From Terriglobia bacterium (lineage in GTDB: Bacteria > Acidobacteriota > Terriglobia > Terriglobales > Acidobacteriaceae): 64,000 nt of DNA. The notes beneath the pieces are model-generated. The model was not told where the DNA came from. It did not search any database and saw only the letters and a list, made by a program, of their open reading frames with translations. Position numbers and translations under genes: made by a program. Position 1 is the stretch's first letter. Each line of letters begins with the position of its first letter. The DNA is taken from NCBI GenBank assembly GCA_963788505.1, contig CAWBGY010000005.1, forward strand, positions 447,565-511,564. The letters run 5' to 3'. Positions 6,918-51,761 of this stretch are shown here, in pieces.

Positions 6918-8124
6918 ATGAAGGGCAAGAAAGCCGGATCCAGCGGGCGAACTGCTGACCTGACCATGGCGGAGAGAACCGGAGTCGAACAAATCGTCGA
7001 GAAAGTGGTGTCCCAGGTTCTGGACAACCACGTCCCGCAGTTGCGGGAGGAGTTGGTGCGCCGGGTGCTGGAGGAACTTCCGCCCGCGACGGATGCGGCG
7101 CCCGCGGAAGTGTCGGGAACAGGTGGATCGGCGAATCTGCTGAAAGCGATTGCGACCATCCAGTCGGGCACGACGCAGCGCGAGATTTTGCGCGCTCTGC
7201 TGGACAACACGGTGCGCTACAGCGGGCGCGGAGCGCTCTTCGTGGTCAAAGCGGGCGCGGCCACGGGTTGGCAGGGACGCGGCTTTACCAAGGACGGCGA
7301 CGACACGATTAAGGATTTTGCCCTCAACGTGACGACGGGTGTGCCGGAGCAGGCCCTGCGGTCGCGGATGCCATTCCAGGGCGCTACGGCTGATATCGAT
7401 CCGGAGTTTATTGCGCGATTCGGCGCTCCGGCCGATGATCAGGTGCTAGTGCTCCCCCTGTTGCTGAAGGAAAAGGTGGCGGCGCTGGTGTATGCCGACG
7501 CAGGCGTGGATGGAGGCGGAAAGATGGACGCCGCCGCGGTGGAGTTGCTGGTGCTTGCGACCAGCGCGTGGCTGGAAGTAGCGTCGCTGCGCAAGCAGGC
7601 GCAGAAAGAAGAATCCGCCGAGGCGGCGGGTCGAGAAAACGGACAGCGCACCGCCGGCGCATGCCGCGTCCGCCCATTCGGATCCTTTTGCGGCGCATGC
7701 GCCCAAGCACATTGAAACCGTTCCCGAGCCGGTTCCGGCCCCGCCGGCTGAAGTGGAGCAGCCAGTCGCAGTGGCCCAGGCCGAGCCGGTGGTTACATCG
7801 GCGGCGGCGGCACCCGCTCCCGCGACCGATGCCTTTGCCAACCTCTCGCCCGAGGACGCTGACGTTCATCGCAAGGCGCACCGCTTTGCCCGCCTGCTGG
7901 TGGATGAGATCAAGCTGTACAACCAGGTGAAAGTCACCGAGGGACGCAAGAGCAAGGATTTGTACGACCGGCTCAAGGAAGACATCGAGAAGAGCCGGGC
8001 AACTTACCAGAAACGATACGGCAACACGGCGGCCGGCGGAGCCGATTACTTCAGCCAGGAGCTGGTTCGCAGCCTGGCCGAAGACGACACTTCCATCATG
8101 GGCGCCAATTTTCGGCGAAATTAA
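6918..8124 (+). CDS. Hypothetical protein with GAF-like middle region and conserved basic/helical C-terminus; frame broken once
   Basis: ORF 6918..7715 (frame 0) and ORF 7753..8124 (frame 1; open from 7582) join naturally (..QKEESAEAAG / VEKTDSAPPAHAAS..PVPAPPAEVEQP..) if one base is removed near 7624-7640. Confidence 0.6.
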
Positions 8125-11156: not shown

Positions 11157-11251
11157 CTTAAACCGCAAAGGACGCAAAGAACTGCCGCAAAGGCCGCAAA
11201 GAATTTTCTTAGCGACCTTTGCGGTATTTCTTTGCGCTCTTTGCGGTTAAG
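11157..11251. repeat. CGCAAAG/CTTTGCG hairpin element (family R1), copy 2, tight hairpin form
   Basis: ttaaaCCGCAAAGGaCGCAAAGaactgCCGCAAAGgcCGCAAAGaa-ttttct-tagcgaCCTTTGCGGtatttCTTTGCGctCTTTGCGGttaag. Lies between convergent VOC and lspA genes. Confidence 0.75.
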
Positions 11252-11255
11252 CTTT

Positions 11256-11762
11256 TCAGGCCGACTTTTCCGGGCGCACGGCGATTTTCCGAAGAGAATT
11301 TCGATCACCAGCAAGACCGGCGCCGACCACAATCGCGCTATCGGCCACGTTGAAGGCCGGCCACTGATATTGGCCGACATAGAACAGCAGGAAATCAACG
11401 ACCCGGCCGCTGAGCAGCCGGTCCCAGAGATTGCCCACCGCACCGCCAAGAATCAGCGCCAACCCGATTCCCGTGCTGTTCATGGCGTGACTGTTTCGCC
11501 ACAGCAGAACGGAGACGATGGCCAGCGCCACAATCGAGAACAGGACCAGCGCCGCGATCTTCCATTCAGAAGGCGAGTCGGCGAAGATGCCGAAGGCGGC
11601 GCCGCGATTCTCCACATGCGTAAGGCGGAAGAATCCCGGAATCATCTGAATGGTGTCGTGCAGCGAAATGTCCTTCGCGACCGCCCACTTGGCCGCCCGG
11701 TCGAGGACTACCACCAGCGCGGCAATCAGGAAGTGGAAGGTACGTGTGGTTTGAGTGGTCAT
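11256..11762 (-). CDS. lspA: Lipoprotein signal peptidase (signal peptidase II)
   Basis: DRAAKWAV...FRLTHVENRGAAFG...LGGAVGNLWDRL..GRVVDFL...WPAFNVADSAIVVGAG. Classic ileS-lspA synteny. The last TM helix reads better in another frame (GLLVIEILFGKS), so one or two extra bases near 11290-11325 are likely. Confidence 0.85.
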   Translation of the reverse strand: MTTQTTRTFHFLIAALVVVLDRAAKWAVAKDISLHDTIQMIPGFFRLTHVENRGAAFGIFADSPSEWKIAALVLFSIVALAIVSVLLWRNSHAMNSTGIGLALILGGAVGNLWDRLLSGRVVDFLLFYVGQYQWPAFNVADSAIVVGAGLAGDRNSLRKIAVRPEKSA

Positions 11763-11829
11763 TCGTGGTGGTGAAAACCCTGAACCGCGAAGAACGCAAC
11801 GCACGTCTTTCCGGCGGCCGGGAGGGCGT

Positions 11830-14697
11830 TTACCCGCCGATCTCCTTTAACACGGCGCTGCAGCGCTCGCACACCGTGGGATAGACGGCGTCCTCGCCCA
11901 CGTGGGTCGAGTAATTCCAGCAGCGTTCGCACTTCTTGCCCGCGGCCTTGCTCACCTGGACGCTGACTCCGCTGGTGCCGTTTCCTGACTTGCCCGGCTG
12001 CAGAGTGACCGCCGACACGATAAACAGATAGCGGAGCCGGTCCTGGTAGCGCGCCAGGACGGAGAACACGGGCTCGGCGGCCGTCACCGTGACCTGTGCC
12101 TCCAGATTGGCGCCGCCGATCAGCTTGCTCTGCCGGGCCTCTTCCAGGGCCTTCAGTACTTCGGTGCGGACACGCCAGCAGTGTGGTCCAATCCTCGCGC
12201 TGTTTGGGATCATCCGCGGGAATGGCACCGCCCAGGATGTCAGATGCGCTGGGGAAGTTGGCCAGATGCACACTGGCGGGACGGTCAGGCAGCGCGGGCA
12301 GGTACTGCCACACTTCGTCGCAGGTGAAGCTGGTGATGGGCGCAAGCAGACGGACCAGGGCCTCGCCGATGTGCCAGATGGCCGTCTGCGCCGCCCGGCG
12401 GGCGCGCGAGTTCGGCGCGTAGGTGTAAAGCCGGTCCTTCAATACGTCGAAGTAGAAGGCGCTCAACTCCACGACGCAGAAGTCATTGATCCGATGATAG
12501 ATCTTGTGAAACGCGAACTCGTCGTACCAACGGGTCACATCCGCCGCCATGGCCACGGTCTGGCGCAGCATGTACTGATCGAGAATGTCCATCTCATCGA
12601 ACGGAACCGCGTGCTGCTGCGGATCAAAATCGTAGAGATTGCTCAGGACATAACGAAACAGACTGTTGCGAATCTTGCGGTAGCTTTCGGCCACGCGCTG
12701 CATCACTGGCTCGGAGCCAACCACGTCCTCGCGAAAATCGACCGAGGCGACCCAGAGACGAACGATCTCGCCGCCCAGGCGGCTGGCGATGTCGACGGGA
12801 TCGACGTCGTTGCCGCGAGACTTCGACATGGCCTGCCCCTTCTCGTCGAGCGTCCAGCCCGGGGTGACGACTCCGTGGTAGGGCGGACTGCCGCGCGTGC
12901 CCATGGCGCAGAGCAGGGAAGACTGAAACCATCCGCGGTACTGGTCGCCGCCTTCGAGATAAAGATCAGAAGGCCAGGGATATCCGGGTTCATCGTCGAG
13001 CAGGGCCAGATAGCTGGTGCCGGACTCCAGCCAGACATCGAAAATGTCGGTTTCCCGCTCAAAGCTTGTTCCACTGCAGTGCGGGCACTGTGGTGCCGGC
13101 GGGGAGCATCGTGTCGGCCTCGGGCGTGTACCACGCGTCGGCGCCGGAACGTGCGAAAAGCTCGGCCACCTTGGCATTGATGGCGGGGTCGTTCAGCGGC
13201 TTGCCGCAGCTTTTGCACAGGAAAACGGCGATGGGCACGCCCCAGACGCGCTGCCGCGAGATGCACCAGTCGGGCCGGGTCGCGATCATGTTGTGCATGC
13301 GCTCCTTGCCCCAGGCTGGGTCCCACTTCACCTTCTCGACGTCTTCGAGGGTACCGGCTGCGCAGGGTGCCGCCGCCCGGCATGGCCGCTTCCATCGAGA
13401 TGAACCACTGTTCGGTGGCGCGAAAGATGATGGGATTATGGCAGCGCCAGCAATGCGGATAGGAATGCACGAGCTTTTCCGTGTGCAGCAGCGCACCGCG
13501 TTTCTTGAGCAGCTCGATGATGGGCGCATTGGCATCCCAAACCTTCAACCCGTCGTACTCGGGAAGGCCGTTGCGCAGGATGCCTTTTTCATCCACGTTG
13601 CTGGTGGCGTCGAGTCCGTACTTCACGCCGGTGGCGAAGTCTTCCGCGCCGTGCGAGGGCGCGGTGTGAACCACGCCGGTGCCGGTGTCCATGGTGACGT
13701 AGTCGGCCAGCACGCCGAGGATTTTGCGATCGAGAAAGGGATGCTGAAAGTTGAGGCGCTCCATCTTGCTCCCGGAGAAGCGTGCCAGTTCCTTCGCGTC
13801 TTGAAGGTTGCATTTCTCGGCCACATCGGCAGCCAGCCTGGCCGCCACGATGTAAGACCTCGCCCGCGGATTCAAGCGCAACGTACTCTTCGTGGGGATG
13901 GAACGCCACCGCCATCGACGCCGGCAGTGTCCAGGGAGTGGTGGTCCAGATGATGGTCGAGACTTTCTTGCCGGTAAGAGCCGGATCAATCTTGGCCGGA
14001 TCGTCAAGCAGCGCGTACTTTACCCAGACGGTTTGGCGTGGTGTCATTCTCGTATTCAACTTCGGCCTCGGCCAGCGCCGTCTCGTCGTGCATGCACCAA
14101 TACACGGCGCGCAGACCCTTGTAGACGAAATTGTTCTCGTAAAAGCTGTAAAACGTCTTCAGCACCACGGACTCGTACTGCGGGGTCATGGTGTAATAGG
14201 GCCGGTCAAAACGCCCGAAGACGCCAATGCGCTTGAACTGCTCGCGCTGCAGATCGAGAAACTTCTGGGCAAACTTGCGGCACTCCCGGCGCACATCAAG
14301 CGGTCGCATCTGCAGCTTCTTGCCGCCCAGCATCTGGTCGACCTTGATCTCGATGGGCAGGCCGTGGCAGTCCCATCCCGGGACATAGGGAGCGTCAAAT
14401 CCGGCCATAGTCTTGGATTTGACCACGAAATCCTTCAGACACTTGTTGAGCGCCGTACCCAGATGGATGGGTCCGCTGGTGTAGGGCGGGCCATCGTGGA
14501 GGACATAGAGCTTTGCCCCGCGCCGCGCCTCGCGAATACGCTCGTAGATTCCCATCTGCTCCCACCGGGCCAGGGCCTTGGGCTCGTTCTGGGGCAGGTT
14601 GGCCTTCATGGGGAAAGTCGGTCTTAGGCAGATTGATGGTGGATTTCAGCTCCAGCGGCACGCGGTTGTTTTCTCCCAAATGGTTGATTTTTTTCAT
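11830..14697 (-). CDS. ileS: Isoleucine--tRNA ligase, reading frame broken six times in the sequence as given
   Basis: Six collinear ORF pieces: [29 protein letters not shown] | [36 protein letters not shown] | [20 protein letters not shown] | [32 protein letters not shown] | [40 protein letters not shown] | [31 protein letters not shown] | [23 protein letters not shown]-like and KMSKS motifs are present. Junctions near 14610-14613, 14032-14034, 13855, 13350-13356, 13088-13092 and 12171-12174. Confidence 0.9.
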
Positions 14698-15001: not shown

Positions 15002-16002
15002 ATGCCAACACTCGAAAGTCAAGCCCCGCGGCGAAGCAGAACCCGAACTCAATTTGCTGCTCTCCAAGAGCGTGTTGGAAGAGCCGCTGTGGAAGTCCCT
15101 TTTCCGGAACCTCGACGATTTCTTCTTTCCCAAGAAACTGCCTCCGCTGGTGCTGACTTCGAAGCCTGTCCCGGTCAAGGACATTTGGGGCTTCTACGAT
15201 TACAAGAAAAACGGCGTTCTGGGTTCTACCGTCGTGCATGTCCTGGCAGTGGCGGCCATCATCGGCATCACCCTGCTGGGCCGAAGGGTAGTGCAGCAGA
15301 TTGTGAAGCCGCACGACACCATCACGCTGGTTTCTCCCGACGATATTCCTCCCTTGCAGCCATCGAAGACGGCCGCGGGAGGCGGCGGCGGTGGCGGCGA
15401 TCGCGACAAGTTCCAGGCGCCCAAGGGCAAATTGCCCAAGCAGTCGATGGAGCAGATCACACCCCCCATGATGGTGGTGAGGAACGACAATCCCAAGCTG
15501 ACGGCTGAACCGACTGTCGTGATTCCGCCCCAGGTGAAGTTGGCTCTGAATAACCTGCCCAACCTGGGTGACCCAATGTCGCACCTGCCCTCCGGGCCCG
15601 CCATCGAACGGAACCGGTTCGGGCGGTGGCATTGGTTCAGGCTCGGGCGGCGGCGTGGGCGTGGGCACGGGTCCCGGCGTGGGCGAAGGCCGCGGCGGCG
15701 GAGTGGGTGGCGGAGTGTTTCGGGTAGGCGGCGGCGTCAGCGCCCCCCGAGTGATCTATCAGCCTGATCCGGAATACTCGGAAGAAGCGCGCAAAGCGAA
15801 GTACCAGGGCACCTGCGTCCTTTGGCTGGTGGTGGGGCCGGATGGCAGGCCGCGAGATATTCGCGTGGCCCGCAGCCTGGGACTGGGACTGGACGAGAAG
15901 GCCATCGAAGCGGTGAAGACCTGGAAGTTCGAGCCGGCGATGAAAGACGGAAAGCCGGTAGCGGTACAGATCAACGTGGAAGTCAGCTTCCGCCTGTACT
16001 GA
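15002..16002 (+). CDS. TonB-family energy transducer (Gly/Pro-rich linker + TonB C-terminal domain); frame broken once or twice
   Basis: N-terminal TM (GSTVVHVLAVAAIIGITLLG), Gly-rich linker, C-terminal PRVIYQPDPEYSEEARKAKYQGTCVLWLVVGPDGRPRDIRVARSLGLGLDEKAIEAVKTWKFEPA. Frame 0 to frame 1 switch near 15590-15600. The only ATG (15002) is in frame 2 and joins frame 0 with one base removed near 15015-15050; alternative TTG start at 15054. Confidence 0.75.
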
Positions 16003-17997: not shown

Positions 17998-19224
17998 TTA
18001 CTTGAAGCGCGAGGCTTGGACGCGTTCTTGTCCTTGCGCTGCCAGGTTGCGTTCACAGCAGGGCCCGGGGGGAATGGGTGCGCCGTGCGGGCAGGTGCGG
18101 GGATGGCCGAGGAAGCTGCAGATCTTGTCGGTCGCTTCGGGCGAGAGAATATGCTCGAACTTGCAGGCCTGCTGTTCGATCTCTGATTCGCTGTCCAGGG
18201 CCAGGCTGTCGGTGAAGAGGCGTTCGGCCAGGCGATGGCGGCGGATGATGTCGGCGGCGCGCAAACGGCCGCGGGGAGTGAATTCCACGATCATGCTGCC
18301 GTCGCCGGTGGAGACGCCCGCAGGCTTGAGCGCATCGTGGCAGGGGTTCACGAAGGGCTTGTGATTGTGCGTTTCCGGCGGATGGGGCTTCGTAGTGAGC
18401 AGGCCCAGGGCCGTCATCTTCTCGACCGCGATGCTGACCGGCAACGCGCCGTGAACTTCCATACGCTCGATTTCAGCAATTTCTCCGTGCTCCTCGACCG
18501 CCCATAGTTCTTCGAGGACTTCGTCGAACTGCTCTTCGTCGGCCATGGCGAAAACTTCCTGATCGGCAATCTTGCCGTGGTGCAGTTCGATGCGGCGGTC
18601 CGCCAGTCGGGCGACGACGGGATCGTGTGTCACCATGACGATGGTGCGTCCCTGGCGGTGCAGTTCGCGCAGCAGGCGCAGGACAATCTCTTCGTTGACC
18701 GCGTCCAGATTGCCGGTGGGCTCGTCGGCCAGAACGATCTTGGGATCGTTGATCAGGGCGCGCGCGATGCAGACCCGCTGCTGCTCCCCGCCGGAAAGGT
18801 GGGCAGGCAGATGCCCGGCGCGGTCCTTCAATCCCACATGGGCCAGGGCCGCCAGCGCTTCCTGCTCATCGGTCATGCTGTGAAAGTACTGGGCCAGCAT
18901 GACGTTTTCGAGCGCGGTGAGGTACGGGATCAGGTGGAATTGCTGGAAGATGAGACCGACCTTTTCGGCGCGAGCGCGGTTCAAGTCCTGGGCGGAAATC
19001 CGGGCGACGTCTTCGCCGTCGAGCCAGATTTCGCCTGACGTGGGGCGATCCAGGCATCCGATCAGGTTGACCAGGGAGGACTTGCCGGAACCGGACGGGC
19101 CCATGATGGCGAGCCACTCGCCAGGTGCAACCTCGAGAGACACGTCATCCAGCGCACGGATAACGCCGCCATTGGTCTCGGCCCGGGCTGGGTAAAGGCG
19201 GCTGACATGTTTGAGCTTGATCAT
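17998..19224 (-). CDS. ABC transporter ATP-binding protein (LolD/MacB type) fused to a C-terminal DtxR/IdeR-like metal-sensor module
   Basis: Walker [10 protein letters not shown], signature LSGGEQQRV, Walker [14 protein letters not shown]-loop VTHD (aa 1-225). Then [12 protein letters not shown]...[60 protein letters not shown] (aa ~228-386). ATG 19224 lies 1 nt after the upstream permease stop. Confidence 0.85.
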
Positions 19225-19225
19225 G

Positions 19226-20377
19226 TCATTCTCCCCTGAGGATGGTAGCAGGTTGAACCCGCCCGAGCAGAGATATCGGCAGGACGGCGGCGATGAGAGC
19301 GATGACGATCCCGCCCAGCAGAACAACCGGCAACACGCTCAGGCGCGGAGTGACCGGGGCGTGAAAATTGACCCGGCCAATCCAGATCGCCACTCCCACT
19401 CCGACGGCAAAGCCTATGGCCGCGCCGATCCCGCCCAGAATGGCGGCTTCGGCGGCGAAGAAGCCTTGCAACATCCTCCCGGATGCGCCCAGGGCCTTCA
19501 TGAGGGCAAAGTCGCGGCGGCGATCGGAGACCCAGCCGGTCAACGTAGAGAGCACACACATTGCGGCGGTGAGAATGATGAGAATGGATGCTACGAGAAG
19601 CGTAGAGCGCATCCTGCCCAATACATTGGCCTCGCCCTCGGTAACCTGGCGTACGGCGTGGACGTCAGCCACGGGAAGGACCTGCCCGAGGCGTTGGATG
19701 ACGGTGCTCACCTCTTCGGTCGAGCCTGAAGCCGAGATCTCAACCGTCGAATACGGGACGTGGGTCCACTCGGTAAAGTCGGCGAGCGATATGTAGATAC
19801 GACTGTCTTCGGCTGCGCCGGTCTGCAGGGTGCCGGCCGGATTGAGCCGAATGGTGCGCCCCTGAAAACTGAGGTCGAAGGGCGTTCCCGGTGAACCGGC
19901 CACGCTAACGGCGCGCGTGCCCACCAGGGCATCGCGGGAAGCTTTTGGCCAACCTGTCACGGACCACCAGCTGCCGTCCAACTTTTGGACTTGTTCGATA
20001 TCCGTCCCGGCAACGACGACCGAATGACCATTAGCGGTGCGGGCGACGGCGTAGGCGAAAGGGACGGCGATGCCCCCGCTGCCCAAGACTGACCGGACCG
20101 TCGCCAGGGTATGGTCCGGCAGGCTCTGGCCGTCGCGGGCAACTACCACGATGTTGGCGCCGTACTTGCGAAACTCCCGGCGCAGCTTGGCCTGAACGTC
20201 GACGTAGAGATTGAGCATGGCGGTGGCCACGGCGGCAGCCACCAGCATGGCTAGCAGCGCAGAGGCGGCCCGCCCCCGCCGCAGAACAGCCGCACGCACC
20301 AGCATGCGCAGGAACATCGAAGTATGGGGCGCGGCCGTCCGGCGGCGGGCGACGTGGCCCGCGTCTGGCGGGATCAT
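19226..20377 (-). CDS. ABC transporter permease, MacB/FtsX type (4 TM, large periplasmic domain)
   Basis: N-terminal TM, ~220-aa extracytoplasmic region, C-terminal FtsX-like 3-TM bundle (DRRRDFALMKALGASGRML). ATGA overlap with the upstream permease gene. Confidence 0.8.
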   Translation of the reverse strand: MIPPDAGHVARRRTAAPHTSMFLRMLVRAAVLRRGRAASALLAMLVAAAVATAMLNLYVDVQAKLRREFRKYGANIVVVARDGQSLPDHTLATVRSVLGSGGIAVPFAYAVARTANGHSVVVAGTDIEQVQKLDGSWWSVTGWPKASRDALVGTRAVSVAGSPGTPFDLSFQGRTIRLNPAGTLQTGAAEDSRIYISLADFTEWTHVPYSTVEISASGSTEEVSTVIQRLGQVLPVADVHAVRQVTEGEANVLGRMRSTLLVASILIILTAAMCVLSTLTGWVSDRRRDFALMKALGASGRMLQGFFAAEAAILGGIGAAIGFAVGVGVAIWIGRVNFHAPVTPRLSVLPVVLLGGIVIALIAAVLPISLLGRVQPATILRGE

Positions 20378-21627
20378 GCATCACCTCGCAGCGCGTACAC
20401 CGGATCAAACTTCACCGCCCGCCGGATGGCTGCAGCACTCCCGGCAAAAGTTACGAGCACGGCAATGGTCAGAATGATGGGCAAGAGCACCGGCTGGATG
20501 GTGATCTGCGAATCGAAAATAGATTGTCCGATCTGACGCGCCAGGAGCGCGCCCCCAACGAAGCCCACGCCTCCGGCCAGCAAGGCCAGCAGCGTAGCTT
20601 CGGCAAAAAACAAGACCGCCACCGCCAGGTTACCCGCGCCTAAAGCTTTCATTAAGCCCACCTCGCTGCGTCGATCCACCACCGCGGTCGCCATCGAAGC
20701 GGAAACCGCCAGAGCGGAGGCCAGCAAGGCGGCCAGGGTAATCAGTAGCATCAGCCCCTGGATGCGGGAAAGTACAGTGCCTTCATTCTGCGCCACCTGG
20801 CGAATCTGTTCCGCGTGGGAGTGGGGAATCGCCTCCTGCAACTGGAATGCGATGGACTGCGCGTAAGGAGAGCAGTACCAGCGGTCGTACATCTCAGGCG
20901 ACATGCTTTTGGGATCGCGGCGGGCGAAAGCATCTTCGGGCTTGGTCACGGCGCTGACGTAGATGCGACGCACCGCGCCGGGCTTGCCGAGAATCTGCTG
21001 GGCCAGGGAAAGAGGCGCGACGATCTGATCATCCTCCGGCCCGCCGGTGGAAAGAATGCCCGCAATCCGGCGTGGGTGACCGTCGATTTCAATTTCCTGG
21101 CCAGGCGTCCGCTCAAGTCTTGCTGCGACGTGATCACCCAGCAGGACGTCCTCCGAGTTATCGTCCGGCCATGCCCCCTGTACTTTCCACCAGGGATGGG
21201 TGGTGCGAACGCCGGTGACGAAATCCTGTTTTCCAAATACAACGTTCCGGGCAAAGTATGTTCCCAGCAGCGTGAGGTTTCCCGCACTGGTCGTAACATT
21301 GACCGGCAGCATGGGGGCGAAACCCACGATGTTGTTGCGCCAGAACATACCTCTGATTCTGGGCAGATCAGCTTCGTTCAGGTATGCCCCGTCACTGGGT
21401 GGCTTCAGGTTCACGCCCCCAATCTCGAGATCCAGCGTGTCTTCCTGGGGTGTGACGATGAGGTTGGCGCCGTAAGTACGCAACTCGCGGCTGATCTTGT
21501 CGCCGATATCAGTGGCAACCGCGATCATGGCCGTGGCTACGCCCACGCCCAGCATGATGGCAACTCCGGCCAGCAGTTTGCGGCGCTTCTGCCGCCGGAA
21601 GGACTCATAAAGTAGGCGTAGGAACAT
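20374..21627 (-). CDS. ABC transporter permease, MacB/FtsX type (4 TM, large periplasmic domain)
   Basis: MFLRLLYESFRRQKRRKLLAGVAIMLGV..., periplasmic domain, FtsX-like C-terminus (DRRSEVGLMKALGAGN). 3-nt gap to the upstream FTR1 gene. Confidence 0.8.
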   Translation of the reverse strand: MFLRLLYESFRRQKRRKLLAGVAIMLGVGVATAMIAVATDIGDKISRELRTYGANLIVTPQEDTLDLEIGGVNLKPPSDGAYLNEADLPRIRGMFWRNNIVGFAPMLPVNVTTSAGNLTLLGTYFARNVVFGKQDFVTGVRTTHPWWKVQGAWPDDNSEDVLLGDHVAARLERTPGQEIEIDGHPRRIAGILSTGGPEDDQIVAPLSLAQQILGKPGAVRRIYVSAVTKPEDAFARRDPKSMSPEMYDRWYCSPYAQSIAFQLQEAIPHSHAEQIRQVAQNEGTVLSRIQGLMLLITLAALLASALAVSASMATAVVDRRSEVGLMKALGAGNLAVAVLFFAEATLLALLAGGVGFVGGALLARQIGQSIFDSQITIQPVLLPIILTIAVLVTFAGSAAAIRRAVKFDPVYALRGDA

Positions 21628-21630
21628 GGG

Positions 21631-22878
21631 TCAGGGTTTGAAAATATGAGCACCGGCCGCGACGTCGGCCTCGCGGATGATGACCGCATCCGCGGTCTGT
21701 TCGGCGCGCAGGGGAATCGGGTTGCAGCCGCCGGTCATGCCGACGGACTGCGCATTGATCGGCGCCGCGCAGTTCTTGCAGATGACCCCGTTCGGTCCTT
21801 TGTAGAAACCAACGGGGCCGCAAATCTGGCAAGCATCGAACACAGTGGCAATTTTGCCGTCCGGCTTCTTGTACAGCCAGAAACGGACCTCCGTACCATT
21901 TTCCCTGGCTGAAAAGCGATGAAGGTCGCCGTCCGCCACCTGCGTGATCGGAATGCTCACCTGTCCGTCATGAAAAGTCACTGCAGTCGCGGGCGACAGG
22001 GAACTCACGCTCTTGGCGTAGATGAATTCTGCCGTGACCATGAGGATGAACAAGAACGAACTGGCATAGACGGAAACCATCCACAGGCGTTCGCGACGGG
22101 CGCTCCACTGCGCCTTGCGCCGCTCGGCGGGAGAGTCGGGAAGGACAACTGGCTGGCGGCGTTTGACCTCGAGCAGCACCATCAAGGCCGCCAATGCGAC
22201 GATGGTCACAAAAAAGAACAGGTCATTGCGCACGATGGGACCGACCAGAGCCATCTCCCTGCGTGAGGAGGGAAGGACTCCGTTTTCAGAAAGCTCATGG
22301 AGTCCGGAGATAATTAACTGGGCCGCCACAAAAAACAGAATGGCGGTGGTGACCCGAAAGAACTTCTGCAGATTGACGCGGACGCTGCCCTTAACGAACA
22401 TCACTCCAAACACAATGGCCACGATCACGCCGGACAGTGTGCCCAGAAAGCTGAGCAGTTCGGTAGAGTTCAGCGACACCGCTCCCAGGATAAGGACGGT
22501 TTCCACGCCCTCGCGCAGGACCATGAGAAAGACAAACAGAAACAAGCCGAACCGGGCATTGTGGCCGGCCAGCAGGCCGACTTTGCCTTCGATCTGTCCC
22601 TTGAGGGCGCGGCCCGTCTTCATCATGAAAACGATCATGGTGATGACGAAGAAGGCGGCGACCAGCATGATCCAGCCTTCGAAAATGTCCTGATTCCACT
22701 GGGTGCGCGACAGCAGAATCGCGATCCCGATGCTGCCCAGAAATGCGGCGATCAGAGCGGTGAAAACAGACTTGCGCAACTCGGGCCGGCCGATCTTCGT
22801 GAGATAGGCCAGGGTAATGCCGACGATAAGCGCGGCTTCGACCCCTTCGCGCAAGGTAACGATGAATGCCTGCAGCAT
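21631..22878 (-). CDS. FTR1/EfeU-type iron permease fused to a C-terminal Cys-rich DUF2318/FtrD-like domain
   Basis: Two REGVE motifs (TLREGVEAAL, VLREGVETVL) in a 7-TM region. Then an extra TM and FDACQICGPVGFYKGPNGVICKNCAAPINAQSVGMTGGCNPIPL. ATG 22878 (MLQAFIVTLREG) is preferred over GTG 22896. Confidence 0.8.
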   Translation of the reverse strand: MLQAFIVTLREGVEAALIVGITLAYLTKIGRPELRKSVFTALIAAFLGSIGIAILLSRTQWNQDIFEGWIMLVAAFFVITMIVFMMKTGRALKGQIEGKVGLLAGHNARFGLFLFVFLMVLREGVETVLILGAVSLNSTELLSFLGTLSGVIVAIVFGVMFVKGSVRVNLQKFFRVTTAILFFVAAQLIISGLHELSENGVLPSSRREMALVGPIVRNDLFFFVTIVALAALMVLLEVKRRQPVVLPDSPAERRKAQWSARRERLWMVSVYASSFLFILMVTAEFIYAKSVSSLSPATAVTFHDGQVSIPITQVADGDLHRFSARENGTEVRFWLYKKPDGKIATVFDACQICGPVGFYKGPNGVICKNCAAPINAQSVGMTGGCNPIPLRAEQTADAVIIREADVAAGAHIFKP

Positions 22879-22897: not shown

Positions 22898-22916
22898 ATT
22901 GCAACTCAGTTGCAAT
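22898..22916. promoter_or_regulatory. Perfect 19-bp palindrome (8-3-8) in the leader of the iron-permease operon; candidate operator or 5'-UTR hairpin
   Basis: ATTGCAAC-TCA-GTTGCAAT, 20 nt upstream of ATG 22878, directly upstream of the GAGG RBS and downstream of the candidate promoter. Confidence 0.4.
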
Positions 22917-22941: not shown

Positions 22942-22971
22942 AGAATAGTCTCCCCCTGGTGCAAGCGTCAA
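22942..22971 (-). promoter_or_regulatory. Candidate sigma70-type promoter of the iron-permease operon
   Basis: Minus strand: TTGACG-18 nt-TATTCT. Confidence 0.3.
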
Positions 22972-23004: not shown

Positions 23005-23126
23005 CCTTCGCGACCTTTGCGGTGCCCTTTGCGTCCTTTGCGGTTAAGAATTTTGCGTGATTTGCAGCAGGATCAAACCCTCTAACCGCAAAGGGCGCAA
23101 AGGGGACCGCAAAGGTCGCAAAGAAG
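23005..23126. repeat. CGCAAAG/CTTTGCG hairpin element (family R1), copy 3
   Basis: gcgaCCTTTGCGGtgcCCTTTGCGtcCTTTGCGGTTAAG - 34-nt loop - TAACCGCAAAGggCGCAAAGgggaCCGCAAAGgtCGCAAAGaagg. Confidence 0.8.
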
Positions 23127-42967: not shown

Positions 42968-46832
<3,865 letters not shown>

Positions 46833-47224: not shown

Positions 47225-47386
47225 CGTAGTGTCCTGATTCGGCGTTCTTGGCCCTTCTTCGCGCTCTTTGCGGATCTTTTTTGCGAACTTTGCGGTTAAG
47301 AGTCTTGCATGACTCGTGCGAGATCCAACCCTTTACCGCAAAGGGCGCAAAGAAGGGCCGCAGAGTTCGCAAAGTTAAGATCGCGC
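47225..47386 (-). repeat. Family R1 long element, copy 4 (inverted relative to copy 5)
   Basis: The reverse complement aligns with 51600..51761 at about 144 of 162 positions (manual alignment), including flanks outside the CTTTGCG arms (GCGCGATCT.., ..CGCCGAATCAGGACACTACG). Confidence 0.85.
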
Positions 47387-48040: not shown

Positions 48041-49415
48041 CTACTGGCCAAGCTTTTCGAAGAACAGGCAGATCGATTCGATTCCGCGATAGAAGTTCGG
48101 GATGTGGAATTTCTCGTTCGGCGCGTGCAGGTTGTCGTCGGGAAGGCCGAAGCCCATCATCACCGACGGAATTTTCAATACGTCCTGAAAATCGGTAACG
48201 ATGGGAATTGAGCCACCGGATCGAATGAAGACCGTCTCTTTCTTGAATACATCGTGCAGAGCTTCGGTGGCGGCCTTGATGTATTTGTTGTCCGTGCCTA
48301 CCACGCACGCCGGGCCTTTGCTCCAAACCTTGATGCTGGTCTGAATGCCTTTAGGCGTGAGCTTCTTTACGTAATTCTTGTACCGCTTGAGAATGTCGTC
48401 CGGATTCTGATTCGGTACCAGGCGCATGGAAACCTTGGCTGAGGCTTTGGCCGGAATCACCGTCTTCGCGCCGGGAGCGACGAATCCTCCGGGCATGCCG
48501 TGCACTTCGAGCGTGGGCCGCGCCCAGGTGCGATAGAGCACCGAATAGCCCGGCTCTCCCGTCAGCACCGTCGAACCTACTTCCGTTTTGCGATAGTGCT
48601 CCTCATTAAATGGCAGGCGCTTCCACGCTTTCAGTTCATCTTTGCTGGGAGCTTTTACGTTCTTGTAGAAGCCCGGGATCAGGACTTTGCCCTTTGGCGT
48701 CCTTCAGTTTGCTGATGATTTCGATCAGGCCAAAAAACGGATTGGGGGCGGCGCCGCCGTACATTCCGGAGTGCAGGTCGGTCTTTGCTCCCACGGCTTC
48801 GATTTCGGTGTAGACCAGGCCGCGCAGCCCCACGCATAGCGTCGGCAGGTCGGCGGCAAATAGTTCGGTGTCGCAGACCAGCGCGAAATCGGCTTTCAGC
48901 TTGGCCTTTTCCTTGCGCACATAAGCGGCGATCGACTCGCCGCCGACTTCCTCTTCGCCTTCGATGATGAACTTCACATTGAGCGGCAGCTTGCCGTTGT
49001 GGCCCTTCATCAGGGCCTCGATGGCCTTGATTTCCATCCATAGCTGGCCTTTGTCGTCGACTGCGCCGCGGGCGTAGATATTGTTGTTGCGCTCGGTGGG
49101 CTCAAAGGGCGGAGAAATCCATTCGTTGAGCGGATCGGGAGGCTGCACGTCGTAGTGGGCGTAACACAGCGCGGTCGGCTTGCCGGGAGCATTGAGCCAG
49201 TCGGCGTAGATCAGGGGATGGCCCTTGGTGGGAATGATCTCAACGTGCTCGAGCCCGATGCGGCGGAGTTCAGCGGCCACAAATTCAGCCGCCTTCTGGA
49301 CGTCGGACTTGTGCTCCGGAAGAGTGCTGATGCTGGGAATGCGCAGCAGGTCTTTGAGTTCGTTGAGGAAACGCTGCTGATTGCCGCGGGCGTAGTCAAC
49401 TGCGGGAGAGGCCAT
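48041..49415 (-). CDS. M20-family metallopeptidase (dipeptidase/deacylase type); frame broken once
   Basis: LKDLLRIPSIS..., AHYDVQP, RGAVDDKG, IIEGEEEVGG metal-ligand motifs. ..KLKDAKG|KVLIPGFYKNVKAP.. junction needs one base removed near 48691. C-terminal part is ORF 48041..48568. Confidence 0.8.
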
Positions 49416-49499: not shown

Positions 49500-49580
49500 C
49501 CGCCCTTTCAGGGCTCGGTCATTTTCGTGCTCCTACCCAGGGCTTACGCCCTGGGCTGCATTCTCTTCCGCCGCTTCGCG
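49500..49580. repeat. Single copy of a hairpin-containing intergenic motif (CCCAGGGC-ttac-GCCCTGGG)
   Basis: Hairpin at 49536-49555 embedded in ..ctttcagggctcggtc..gggctgcattctcttccgccgcttcgcggc. I recall similar strings as dispersed repeats in other genomes. Only one copy here. Confidence 0.3.
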
Positions 49581-49641
49581 GCGATTTTCGGCGACCAGAA
49601 CGCGTGTAGGGCAGGATCGCTCGGACAGCCGGAAAGCTGGG

Positions 49642-51599: not shown

Positions 51600-51761
51600 G
51601 CGCGATCTGAACTTTGCGAACTTTGCGGATCTTCTTTGCGTCCTTTGCGGTTAAGGGTTTGATCTCGCCCGAGTCATGCAAGACTTTTAACCGCAAAGGA
51701 CGCAAAGAAGATCCGCAAAGACCGCAAAGAAGGGCAACGAGCGCCGAATCAGGACACTACG
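51600..51761 (+). repeat. Family R1 long element, copy 5
   Basis: GCGCGATCTgaaCTTTGCGaaCTTTGCGGatcttCTTTGCGtcCTTTGCGGTTAAG - 32-nt loop - TTAACCGCAAAGgaCGCAAAGaagatcCGCAAAGacCGCAAAGaagggc...GAATCAGGACACTACG. Confidence 0.85.

Follow-up and report, generated by a model that had tools for sequence, protein, structure and literature searches.

A Fet-type operon of Terriglobia with an FTR1 permease fused to a Cys-rich domain and an ATPase fused to a DtxR-like module

The Fet/P19 iron uptake system supports the growth of Campylobacter jejuni under iron limitation and is upregulated in human infection, and homologous Fet clusters are present in uropathogenic Escherichia coli and Yersinia. In C. jejuni, the fetMP-fetABCDEF cluster encodes the FTR1 permease FetM, P19 (FetP), FetA (an eight-helix protein with DUF2318 and YHS domains), the permeases FetB and FetC, the ATPase FetD and two thioredoxins (PMC6083913, PMC10783030). 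Individually, fetA, fetB, fetC and fetD are required for the growth of C. jejuni at low iron (PMC10783030), the role of FetA and FetBCD in Fet/P19 uptake is still unsettled (PMC6083913, PMC10783030), and P19 adjoins the permease in all the 33 classical clusters surveyed (PMC6083913). Here, a four-gene operon is described that occupies positions 17998-22878 (open reading frame (ORF) coordinates) on the minus strand of a 64-kb stretch of contig CAWBGY010000005.1 from a Terriglobia bacterium, the whole of which is called the window below; the source is a metagenome-assembled genome of Terriglobales (Acidobacteriota). The operon is a variant of this known Fet-type system, in which the permease is fused to a Cys-rich domain and the ATPase to a DtxR-like module; it is common in nature, and no paper on the fused form was found.

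The four closely packed genes, designated g1, g2, g3 and g4, were located at 21631-22878 (415 aa, counted from ATG), 20374-21627 (417 aa), 19226-20377 (383 aa) and 17998-19224 (408 aa), respectively. The gap between g1 and g2 is 3 nt, g2 and g3 overlap by 4 nt (ATGA), and the gap between g3 and g4 is 1 nt. An alternative start of g1 is a GTG 18 nt upstream of the ATG, and the start of g3 is uncertain because the conservation among its orthologues sets in only at Met21. A preliminary description, made from the sequence alone, had reported same-strand genes with gaps or overlaps of 1-4 nt that encode an FTR1 permease with two REGVE motifs fused to a Cys-rich DUF2318/FtrD-like domain, two MacB/FtsX-type permeases with large periplasmic domains and a LolD/MacB-type ATPase fused to a DtxR-like module. 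The coordinates bore out this packing, and Pfam searches supported the FTR1, FtrD-like, MacB/FtsX, ABC_tran and Fe_dep_repr_C assignments. The parts list of C. jejuni cj1658-cj1665, which it had used for comparison, was confirmed by the published descriptions (PMC6083913, PMC10783030), and the homology is supported by a direct comparison with the annotated cluster of the E. coli plasmid p2D-3, which was used as the reference below.

The product of g1 was assigned as an FTR1 permease followed by a FetA-type last helix and a periplasmic Cys-rich FtrD-like/DUF2318 domain, by using Pfam, BLASTP, a hidden Markov model (HMM) of its orthologues, hydropathy, motifs and conservation. The Pfam matches were FTR1 (2.8e-37) and FtrD-like (PF10080, 8.9e-30), and the best NCBIfam model for the core was EfeU, with 150.6 bits under its cut-off of 255 bits. 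The FTR1 part (residues 1-238, nt 22165-22878, minus strand) contains seven helices and carries the REGVE motifs at residues 10 and 122. It is followed by a strongly basic Arg/Lys-rich linker and then by the eighth helix and the Cys domain (residues 265-415, nt 21634-22086, minus strand), which is placed in the periplasm because of the helix count, the basic linker and the eighth helix. The cysteines at residues 350, 353, 367, 370 and 385 form the pattern CxxC-x13-CxxC-x14-C, with the spacing that has been described for FetA of C. jejuni (PMC6083913). In 66 g1 orthologues, among them a lineage that is only ~50% identical, neither the two REGVE motifs nor the five cysteines vary.

The two parts of g1 were aligned separately with the classical proteins. 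Residues 1-200 match the permease core of FetM with 29% identity (E 5e-19, BLASTP), and an HMM built from the 66 orthologues matches FetM at 3.3e-26 over all seven helices. Residues 239-414 match residues 228-401 of FetA, namely its last helix and Cys domain, with 32% identity (E 2e-24). Because its two parts align separately with the FetM core and the FetA end, g1 is, on these alignments, a real chimera of the FetM core and the C-terminal part of FetA. It lacks the large periplasmic N-terminal domain of FetM (~360 aa), the seven-helix bundle of FetA and the YHS domain. The description of g1 as a fusion of Ftr1 with the DUF2318 protein is thus right for the last helix and the Cys domain of FetA but not for its helix bundle and YHS domain, which are absent. 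The idea that the FetA bundle is itself a degenerate FTR1, so that g1 would be an active FetA, was also considered and was unsupported at this sensitivity (HMM E 0.08-0.17, hhalign probability 0.2%).

The products of g2 and g3 (both minus strand) were assigned as a FetB-like MacB/FtsX-type permease and a FetC-like FtsX-type permease, respectively. In g2, one helix is followed by a periplasmic domain of ~250 aa and three further helices, with Pfam matches to MacB_PCD (6.4e-15) and FtsX (1.2e-14). The periplasmic domain of g3 comprises ~200 aa, and its Pfam matches were FtsX (2.9e-16) and, with 22.6 bits under the 27-bit cut-off, MacB_PCD. By Pfam, hydropathy and PDB sequence matches to MacB-type permeases, both follow the four-helix FtsX plan, in which a large periplasmic domain separates helix 1 from helix 2; together with a MacB/LolD-type ATPase, this architecture is that of type VII (MacB/FtsX) ATP-binding cassette (ABC) machines. 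g2 matches E. coli FetB over the full length with 39% identity (270 bits, vs 114 bits to FetC) and has periplasmic signatures in common with it, and g3 matches FetC with 31% identity (147 bits, vs 104 bits to FetB).

Residues 1-222 of g4 (18559-19224, minus strand) were assigned by Pfam, NCBIfam and alignment as a MacB/LolD-type ABC ATPase domain resembling FetD, with intact Walker A, signature, Walker B and H-loop motifs. ABC_tran was matched at 1.1e-36, and the nearest NCBIfam models were those of the MacB ATPase domain, with 216 bits, of LolD, with 203 bits, and of FtsE. The identity of this domain with E. coli FetD is 60% (261 bits). The gene order is the same as that of FetA-FetB-FetC-FetD and the cross-pairings score lower, and g2, g3 and g4 appear to be the respective orthologues of FetB, FetC and FetD. 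Shared with the Fet clusters known from C. jejuni, Yersinia and plasmids of E. coli are the FTR1 permease with its pair of REXXE motifs, the DUF2318 Cys motif behind a membrane helix and, in unchanged order and with 31-60% identity, the two FtsX/MacB-type permeases and the MacB/LolD-type ATPase; a candidate Fur-like box is also present upstream.

Unlike classical FetD, g4 continues into a second part (residues 223-408, 17998-18558, minus strand), which was assigned as a DtxR/IdeR-like two-domain module with an acidic winged helix and a metal-binding/dimerisation domain; no DtxR part is known from the classical system, which is under the control of Fur. Fe_dep_repr_C (PF02742) was matched at 1.1e-25, and in a PDB sequence search the module matched IdeR/DtxR at 2e-15 in the dimerisation/metal-binding domain, with the winged helix weak but in register. 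An AlphaFold2 model of residues 219-408 was obtained with a mean predicted local distance difference test score (pLDDT) of 82 and a predicted template modelling (TM) score of 0.79, and Foldseek aligned it with two-domain IdeR/DtxR structures at target-normalised TM-scores of 0.74-0.80 over ~157 columns. The module is predicted from this model to retain the whole two-domain IdeR fold, without the SH3/FeoA domain. In the alignment, the ligand positions H79, E83, C102, E105 and H106 are kept as in DtxR, IdeR and MntR, the position of H98 is Glu, and that of M10 is Glu or His. Unlike these free-standing regulators, the module is the C-terminal fusion partner of an ABC ATPase and carries four extra invariant cysteines near its own C-terminus (ICxFLGHPxTCPHGxPIPPGxCC), and a conserved His/Cys-rich insert of ~25 aa is found in its wing (nt 18307-18387, minus strand, g4 residues ~280-306). 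A further site for a metal or an Fe-S cluster may be formed by the insert and the extra cysteines. The module is separated from the ATPase domain by a linker that is ~5 residues long and of low confidence in the full-length g4 model, which is itself moderate (pLDDT 69).

The preliminary description had counted two pairs of functions as covalently joined. This holds for the FetM and FetA parts in g1 but not for g4, where the DtxR module is an addition and not one of a pair of Fet functions. Stand-alone copies of the module (180-212 aa) were encountered in two long-read contigs and were rejected as artefacts of frameshifts. In a search of representative proteins, one of 434 aa (P0367) was found to contain Fe_dep_repr_C, FeoA and FMN_bind together; it may point to a broader connection of DtxR-type sensors with Fet systems, and a chimeric gene call is also possible. 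A flavin mononucleotide (FMN)-binding protein is encoded by the seventh gene of Gram-positive Fet clusters (PMC6083913).

For the analysis of distribution, 80 loci from GTDB species were used, being the best of at least 400 confirmed relatives from a scan with the alignment of the DtxR module, each with 10 kb on both sides. The four genes are present in order within 5.6 kb in 72 of these loci, and the ATPase and DtxR parts are in one reading frame in 75. All are labelled Acidobacteriota (Terriglobales, Acidobacteriaceae, Ca. Sulfotelmatobacter) except one, a bin labelled Verrucomicrobiia. More than 7,800 database relatives of g1 were found, the best 120 of which are at least 88% identical and of the same architecture; these relatives carry only the names 'high-affinity iron transporter' or 'Fe-S-containing protein'. 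Clustering of the fused module at 50% gave only a few clusters. Among these is a cluster labelled Ca. Acidoferrum, ~48% identical, in which the four genes and both fusions recur as the same operon, although the neighbourhood is unrelated and contains no P19. In this clade, the wing insert is replaced by a linker, rich in His and Cys, that connects the ATPase domain to the module. Because both fusions are present in two Terriglobia lineages with different neighbourhoods, they appear to be old and to have been inherited together within Terriglobia. The operon with both fusions is thus kept in at least two Terriglobia lineages, and it is abundant in soil metagenomes; in numbers, Terriglobia species genomes with this architecture run to hundreds and metagenome proteins to thousands. 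Among the PLSDB plasmids, no match spanned both halves of g1, so no fused permease was found there. In the Acidoferrum-like locus (L085), the spacer between the g1-like and g2-like genes contains at 7195-7440 two tandem AT-rich elements of ~75 nt each, vs the 3-nt spacer of the window lineage.

The possibility had been raised that the identical fused architecture is already common and functionally characterised. Common it is, but a functional study was not found: in the literature on DUF2318, on FTR1/FtsX/P19, on FTR1 of Acidobacteria and on DtxR-ABC fusions, a description of the fused variant was not encountered.

Upstream of the operon, a perfect 19-bp palindrome, ATTGCAACTGAGTTGCAAT, is present at 22898-22916, 19 nt (end to start) before the ATG of g1, and was taken as a candidate Fur-type operator. 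It occurs once in the window, vs 0.01 copies expected. The palindrome is situated between the g1 start and a sigma-70-like promoter candidate (TTGACG-18-TATTCT, 22942-22971, minus strand), which lies upstream of both and is a pattern match only, obtained by a consensus scan. Palindromes of the same 7-5-7 form, ATTG[C/A]AA-N5-TT[G/T]CAAT, were found upstream of g1 in 55 sequences (53 GTDB loci, the window and the second assembly of its locus), and no further copy was found elsewhere in the 1.7 Mb of loci around the operon. Scored against consensus sequences, the Fur one being that of E. coli, the common AT-rich variant ATTGAAATTCATTTTCAAT matches the Fur consensus at 14/19 positions, the 7-1-7 Fur box at 11/14 and the DtxR box at 7-8/19.

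From these features, the operon is proposed to encode a Terriglobia iron importer of the Fet type that is self-contained and probably regulated by Fur, and the ATPase of which is switched allosterically by cytosolic Fe2+; this proposal is given an even chance of being right. The passage of iron across the inner membrane would be provided by the FTR1 channel in g1 with its two REGVE motifs, and the tethered Cys-rich domain would serve the periplasmic mouth of the channel as a hand-off site for metal or electrons, taking the place of FetA and possibly also of P19 in the classical system. The short EfeU-like FTR1 core resembles those of EfeUOB and FtrABCD, which depend on a periplasmic redox or metal-binding partner; unlike those systems, the operon has no EfeO, EfeB, P19, cupredoxin or polyferredoxin nearby, and the fused Cys domain is the sole periplasmic partner present. 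Mechanotransmission is the principle of type VII ABC systems. By analogy, g2 and g3 would form a FetB/FetC-like heterodimer of the MacB type powered by two copies of g4, in which cytoplasmic ATP hydrolysis drives movements of the periplasmic domains that act on the FtrD-like domain or its iron source, and no substrate would be carried through the membrane by the g2/g3/g4 complex itself.

The DtxR-derived module would be the cytosolic Fe2+ sensor, dimerising under the ATPase domains. Trans-inhibition by C-terminal regulatory domains is established for MetNI and ModBC. Similarly, when iron is sufficient, the module would be loaded with Fe2+ and hold the ATPase inactive, comparable to the trans-inhibition of MetN, ModC and MalK. 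Like the extra domains of MalK, MetN, ModC and FbpC, it is dimerisable and placed right behind the ATPase domain, in a position to sense a substrate-related cytoplasmic ligand. Unlike them, its fold is DtxR-like instead of TOBE or ACT, its partner is a MacB-type mechanotransducer instead of a classical importer, and its regulatory function is predicted by analogy. Of this picture, the domain architecture, the orthology with the Fet proteins, the topology, the conservation of motifs, ligands and gene order and the Fur-like palindrome come from the analysis, whereas iron as the substrate, the contact of the ABC machine with the FtrD-like domain, the control by Fe2+ and the regulation by Fur are inferred.

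Several points weigh against this proposal. The direction of the allosteric effect, inhibition or activation, is a guess. The operator variant of the window itself is a poor match to the Fur box (8/14). The segment of the module that corresponds to the recognition helix, ending in (I/L)A(V/I)EKM, is under constraint because it is almost invariant across 76 orthologues, and DNA binding could still be its function. The role of the Cys domain is speculative because there is no FTR1 or FtrD-like protein with a structure. Finally, genes for P19, for a reductant partner or for Fur may be located in other parts of the genome.

The last point leads to the alternative that survives best, although it is considered unlikely: the operon would not be minimal but part of an ordinary Fet system with scattered genes, in which P19/FetP, a thioredoxin or FMN-binding protein, or EfeO/EfeB act in trans. 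The preliminary description had noted the absence of a P19/FetP, cupredoxin or thioredoxin gene from the operon, and Pfam and tblastn agree for both the operon and the window. With E. coli FetP as the tblastn query, neither the 64-kb window nor any of 83 related loci gave a match; no P19 or FMN-binding gene was found within 10 kb of the operon in the 80 related genomes, and PF10634 had no match among the window ORFs scanned or in the second assembly and L085. In Pfam scans of the window genes, no EfeO, EfeB, thioredoxin, Fur or cupredoxin other than COX2 was detected. The absence of P19 thus extends over the 80 species loci, the second lineage and the window, which counts against scattered genes given that P19 adjoins the permease in all the 33 classical clusters (PMC6083913), and so does the lack of the large N-terminal periplasmic domain of FetM from the FTR1 part of g1. 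In favour of partners in trans, the search of this genome covered 64 kb, the opposite strand of L085 carries a gene of the thioredoxin fold at a distance of 9 kb, and with TlpA thioredoxin as the query weak matches were obtained in only two of the 80 loci, outside the operon.

That the module is instead a true DNA-binding repressor tethered to the transporter, the Fe2+-loaded form of which binds the palindrome upstream of g1 and shuts its own operon, is regarded as improbable. Such a repressor would be consistent with the predicted fold, which includes the winged helix and matches DNA-bound IdeR at the TM-scores given above, with the near-invariance of the helix segment and with a perfect palindrome that is situated close upstream of g1 and absent from the rest of the loci examined. 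However, the helix is invariant whether the operator arms are TTGCAA or TTGAAA, and the Acidoferrum-like lineage has a quite different helix with a similar operator, TTGCAAATGATTCACAA, so that helix and operator do not covary. The operator is also far nearer to the Fur box than to the DtxR box. The winged helix is acidic, with a net charge of -11 (-14 to -9 among the orthologues) vs -3 in DtxR, its wing is interrupted by the insert, the positions of the DNA-contacting Q43 and R50 are Ile and Ala in a register read by eye, and the Pfam helix-turn-helix model PF01325 had no match in g4. Because of the Fur-like operator, the lack of helix-operator covariation, the acidic winged helix and the lost contact residues, Fur-type transcriptional control together with an allosteric role of the module that does not involve DNA binding is favoured.

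Quite improbable, finally, is a function for another metal (Mn, Cu, Zn or Pb) or in metal export or detoxification with the sensor-bound metal activating the ATPase, for which the extra invariant Cys and His residues of the module with its His/Cys insert, the Cys-rich periplasmic domains and classical FetA's YHS domain, both typical of copper handling, could be cited, as well as the lead-uptake protein PbrT among the FTR1 relatives and the Mn sensors within the DtxR family. It is opposed by the paired REGxE motifs as an iron-permease signature, by the Cys at the C102 position, which is typical of the Fe-sensing DtxR/IdeR and not of Mn sensors, by the Fur-like box upstream of g1 and by the closest characterised relatives, FetM, FetA, FetB, FetC and FetD, which support growth at low iron (PMC10783030).

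The welding of the Cys domain to the channel in a natural variant argues for a physical interaction between the Cys domain and FTR1, and the lack of a P19 gene nearby suggests that P19 may be dispensable in the fused variant. A fused variant without P19 therefore narrows the Fet system to a testable core, and the operon is a helpful natural experiment for understanding the workings of Fet systems. The sensor on the ATPase likewise suggests that ATP hydrolysis by FetD gates the entry of iron under feedback control. A further, combined claim, that the ATPase-DtxR fusion would be the first case of a DtxR-family sensor as an allosteric domain of an ABC machine and that the FTR1-DUF2318 fusion would be evidence for a Cys domain that docks on the channel and can replace P19, is put forward tentatively and is considered somewhat less likely than not. 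On this claim, iron uptake would gain a direct post-translational shut-off by cytosolic Fe2+, and the two fusions together would mark the permease, the Cys domain and FetBCD as the minimal functional core of Fet-type systems. The operon is widespread in Terriglobia, which are dominant soil bacteria, and therefore it may be a main route of iron acquisition there.

In the neighbourhood, a gene for a protein with a TonB_C domain (15054-16002, plus strand) is located on the opposite strand 2 kb downstream of the operon, with a DUF4440 gene and murI in between, and the same synteny is present in the second assembly of this locus (L002, ENA). Three genes of the window, ileS (11759-14609), smc (42968-46832) and an M20 peptidase gene (48041-49415), are each split into two or three ORFs. 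Because ileS is a single intact gene of 953 aa in L002, the splits are probably assembly frameshifts rather than pseudogenes. A match to the Acido-Lenti-1 small RNA of Rfam was obtained at 49536-49583 (plus strand) with 43.7 bits, vs a gathering threshold of 37. A dispersed element of GCAAAGG repeats, resembling repetitive extragenic palindromic (REP) sequences or miniature inverted-repeat transposable elements (MITEs), was also noticed. The copy at 23006-23123, which separates a SprT-like gene from the g1 promoter candidate, has arms of 41 nt that are 93% complementary, with an RNA fold of -84 kcal/mol (z-score -9.5), and further copies are located at ~1011-1070, 11162-11247, 47279-47352 and 51612-51729. 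In total, the GCAAAGG-repeat motif has 16 matches in the window vs 0 expected by chance.

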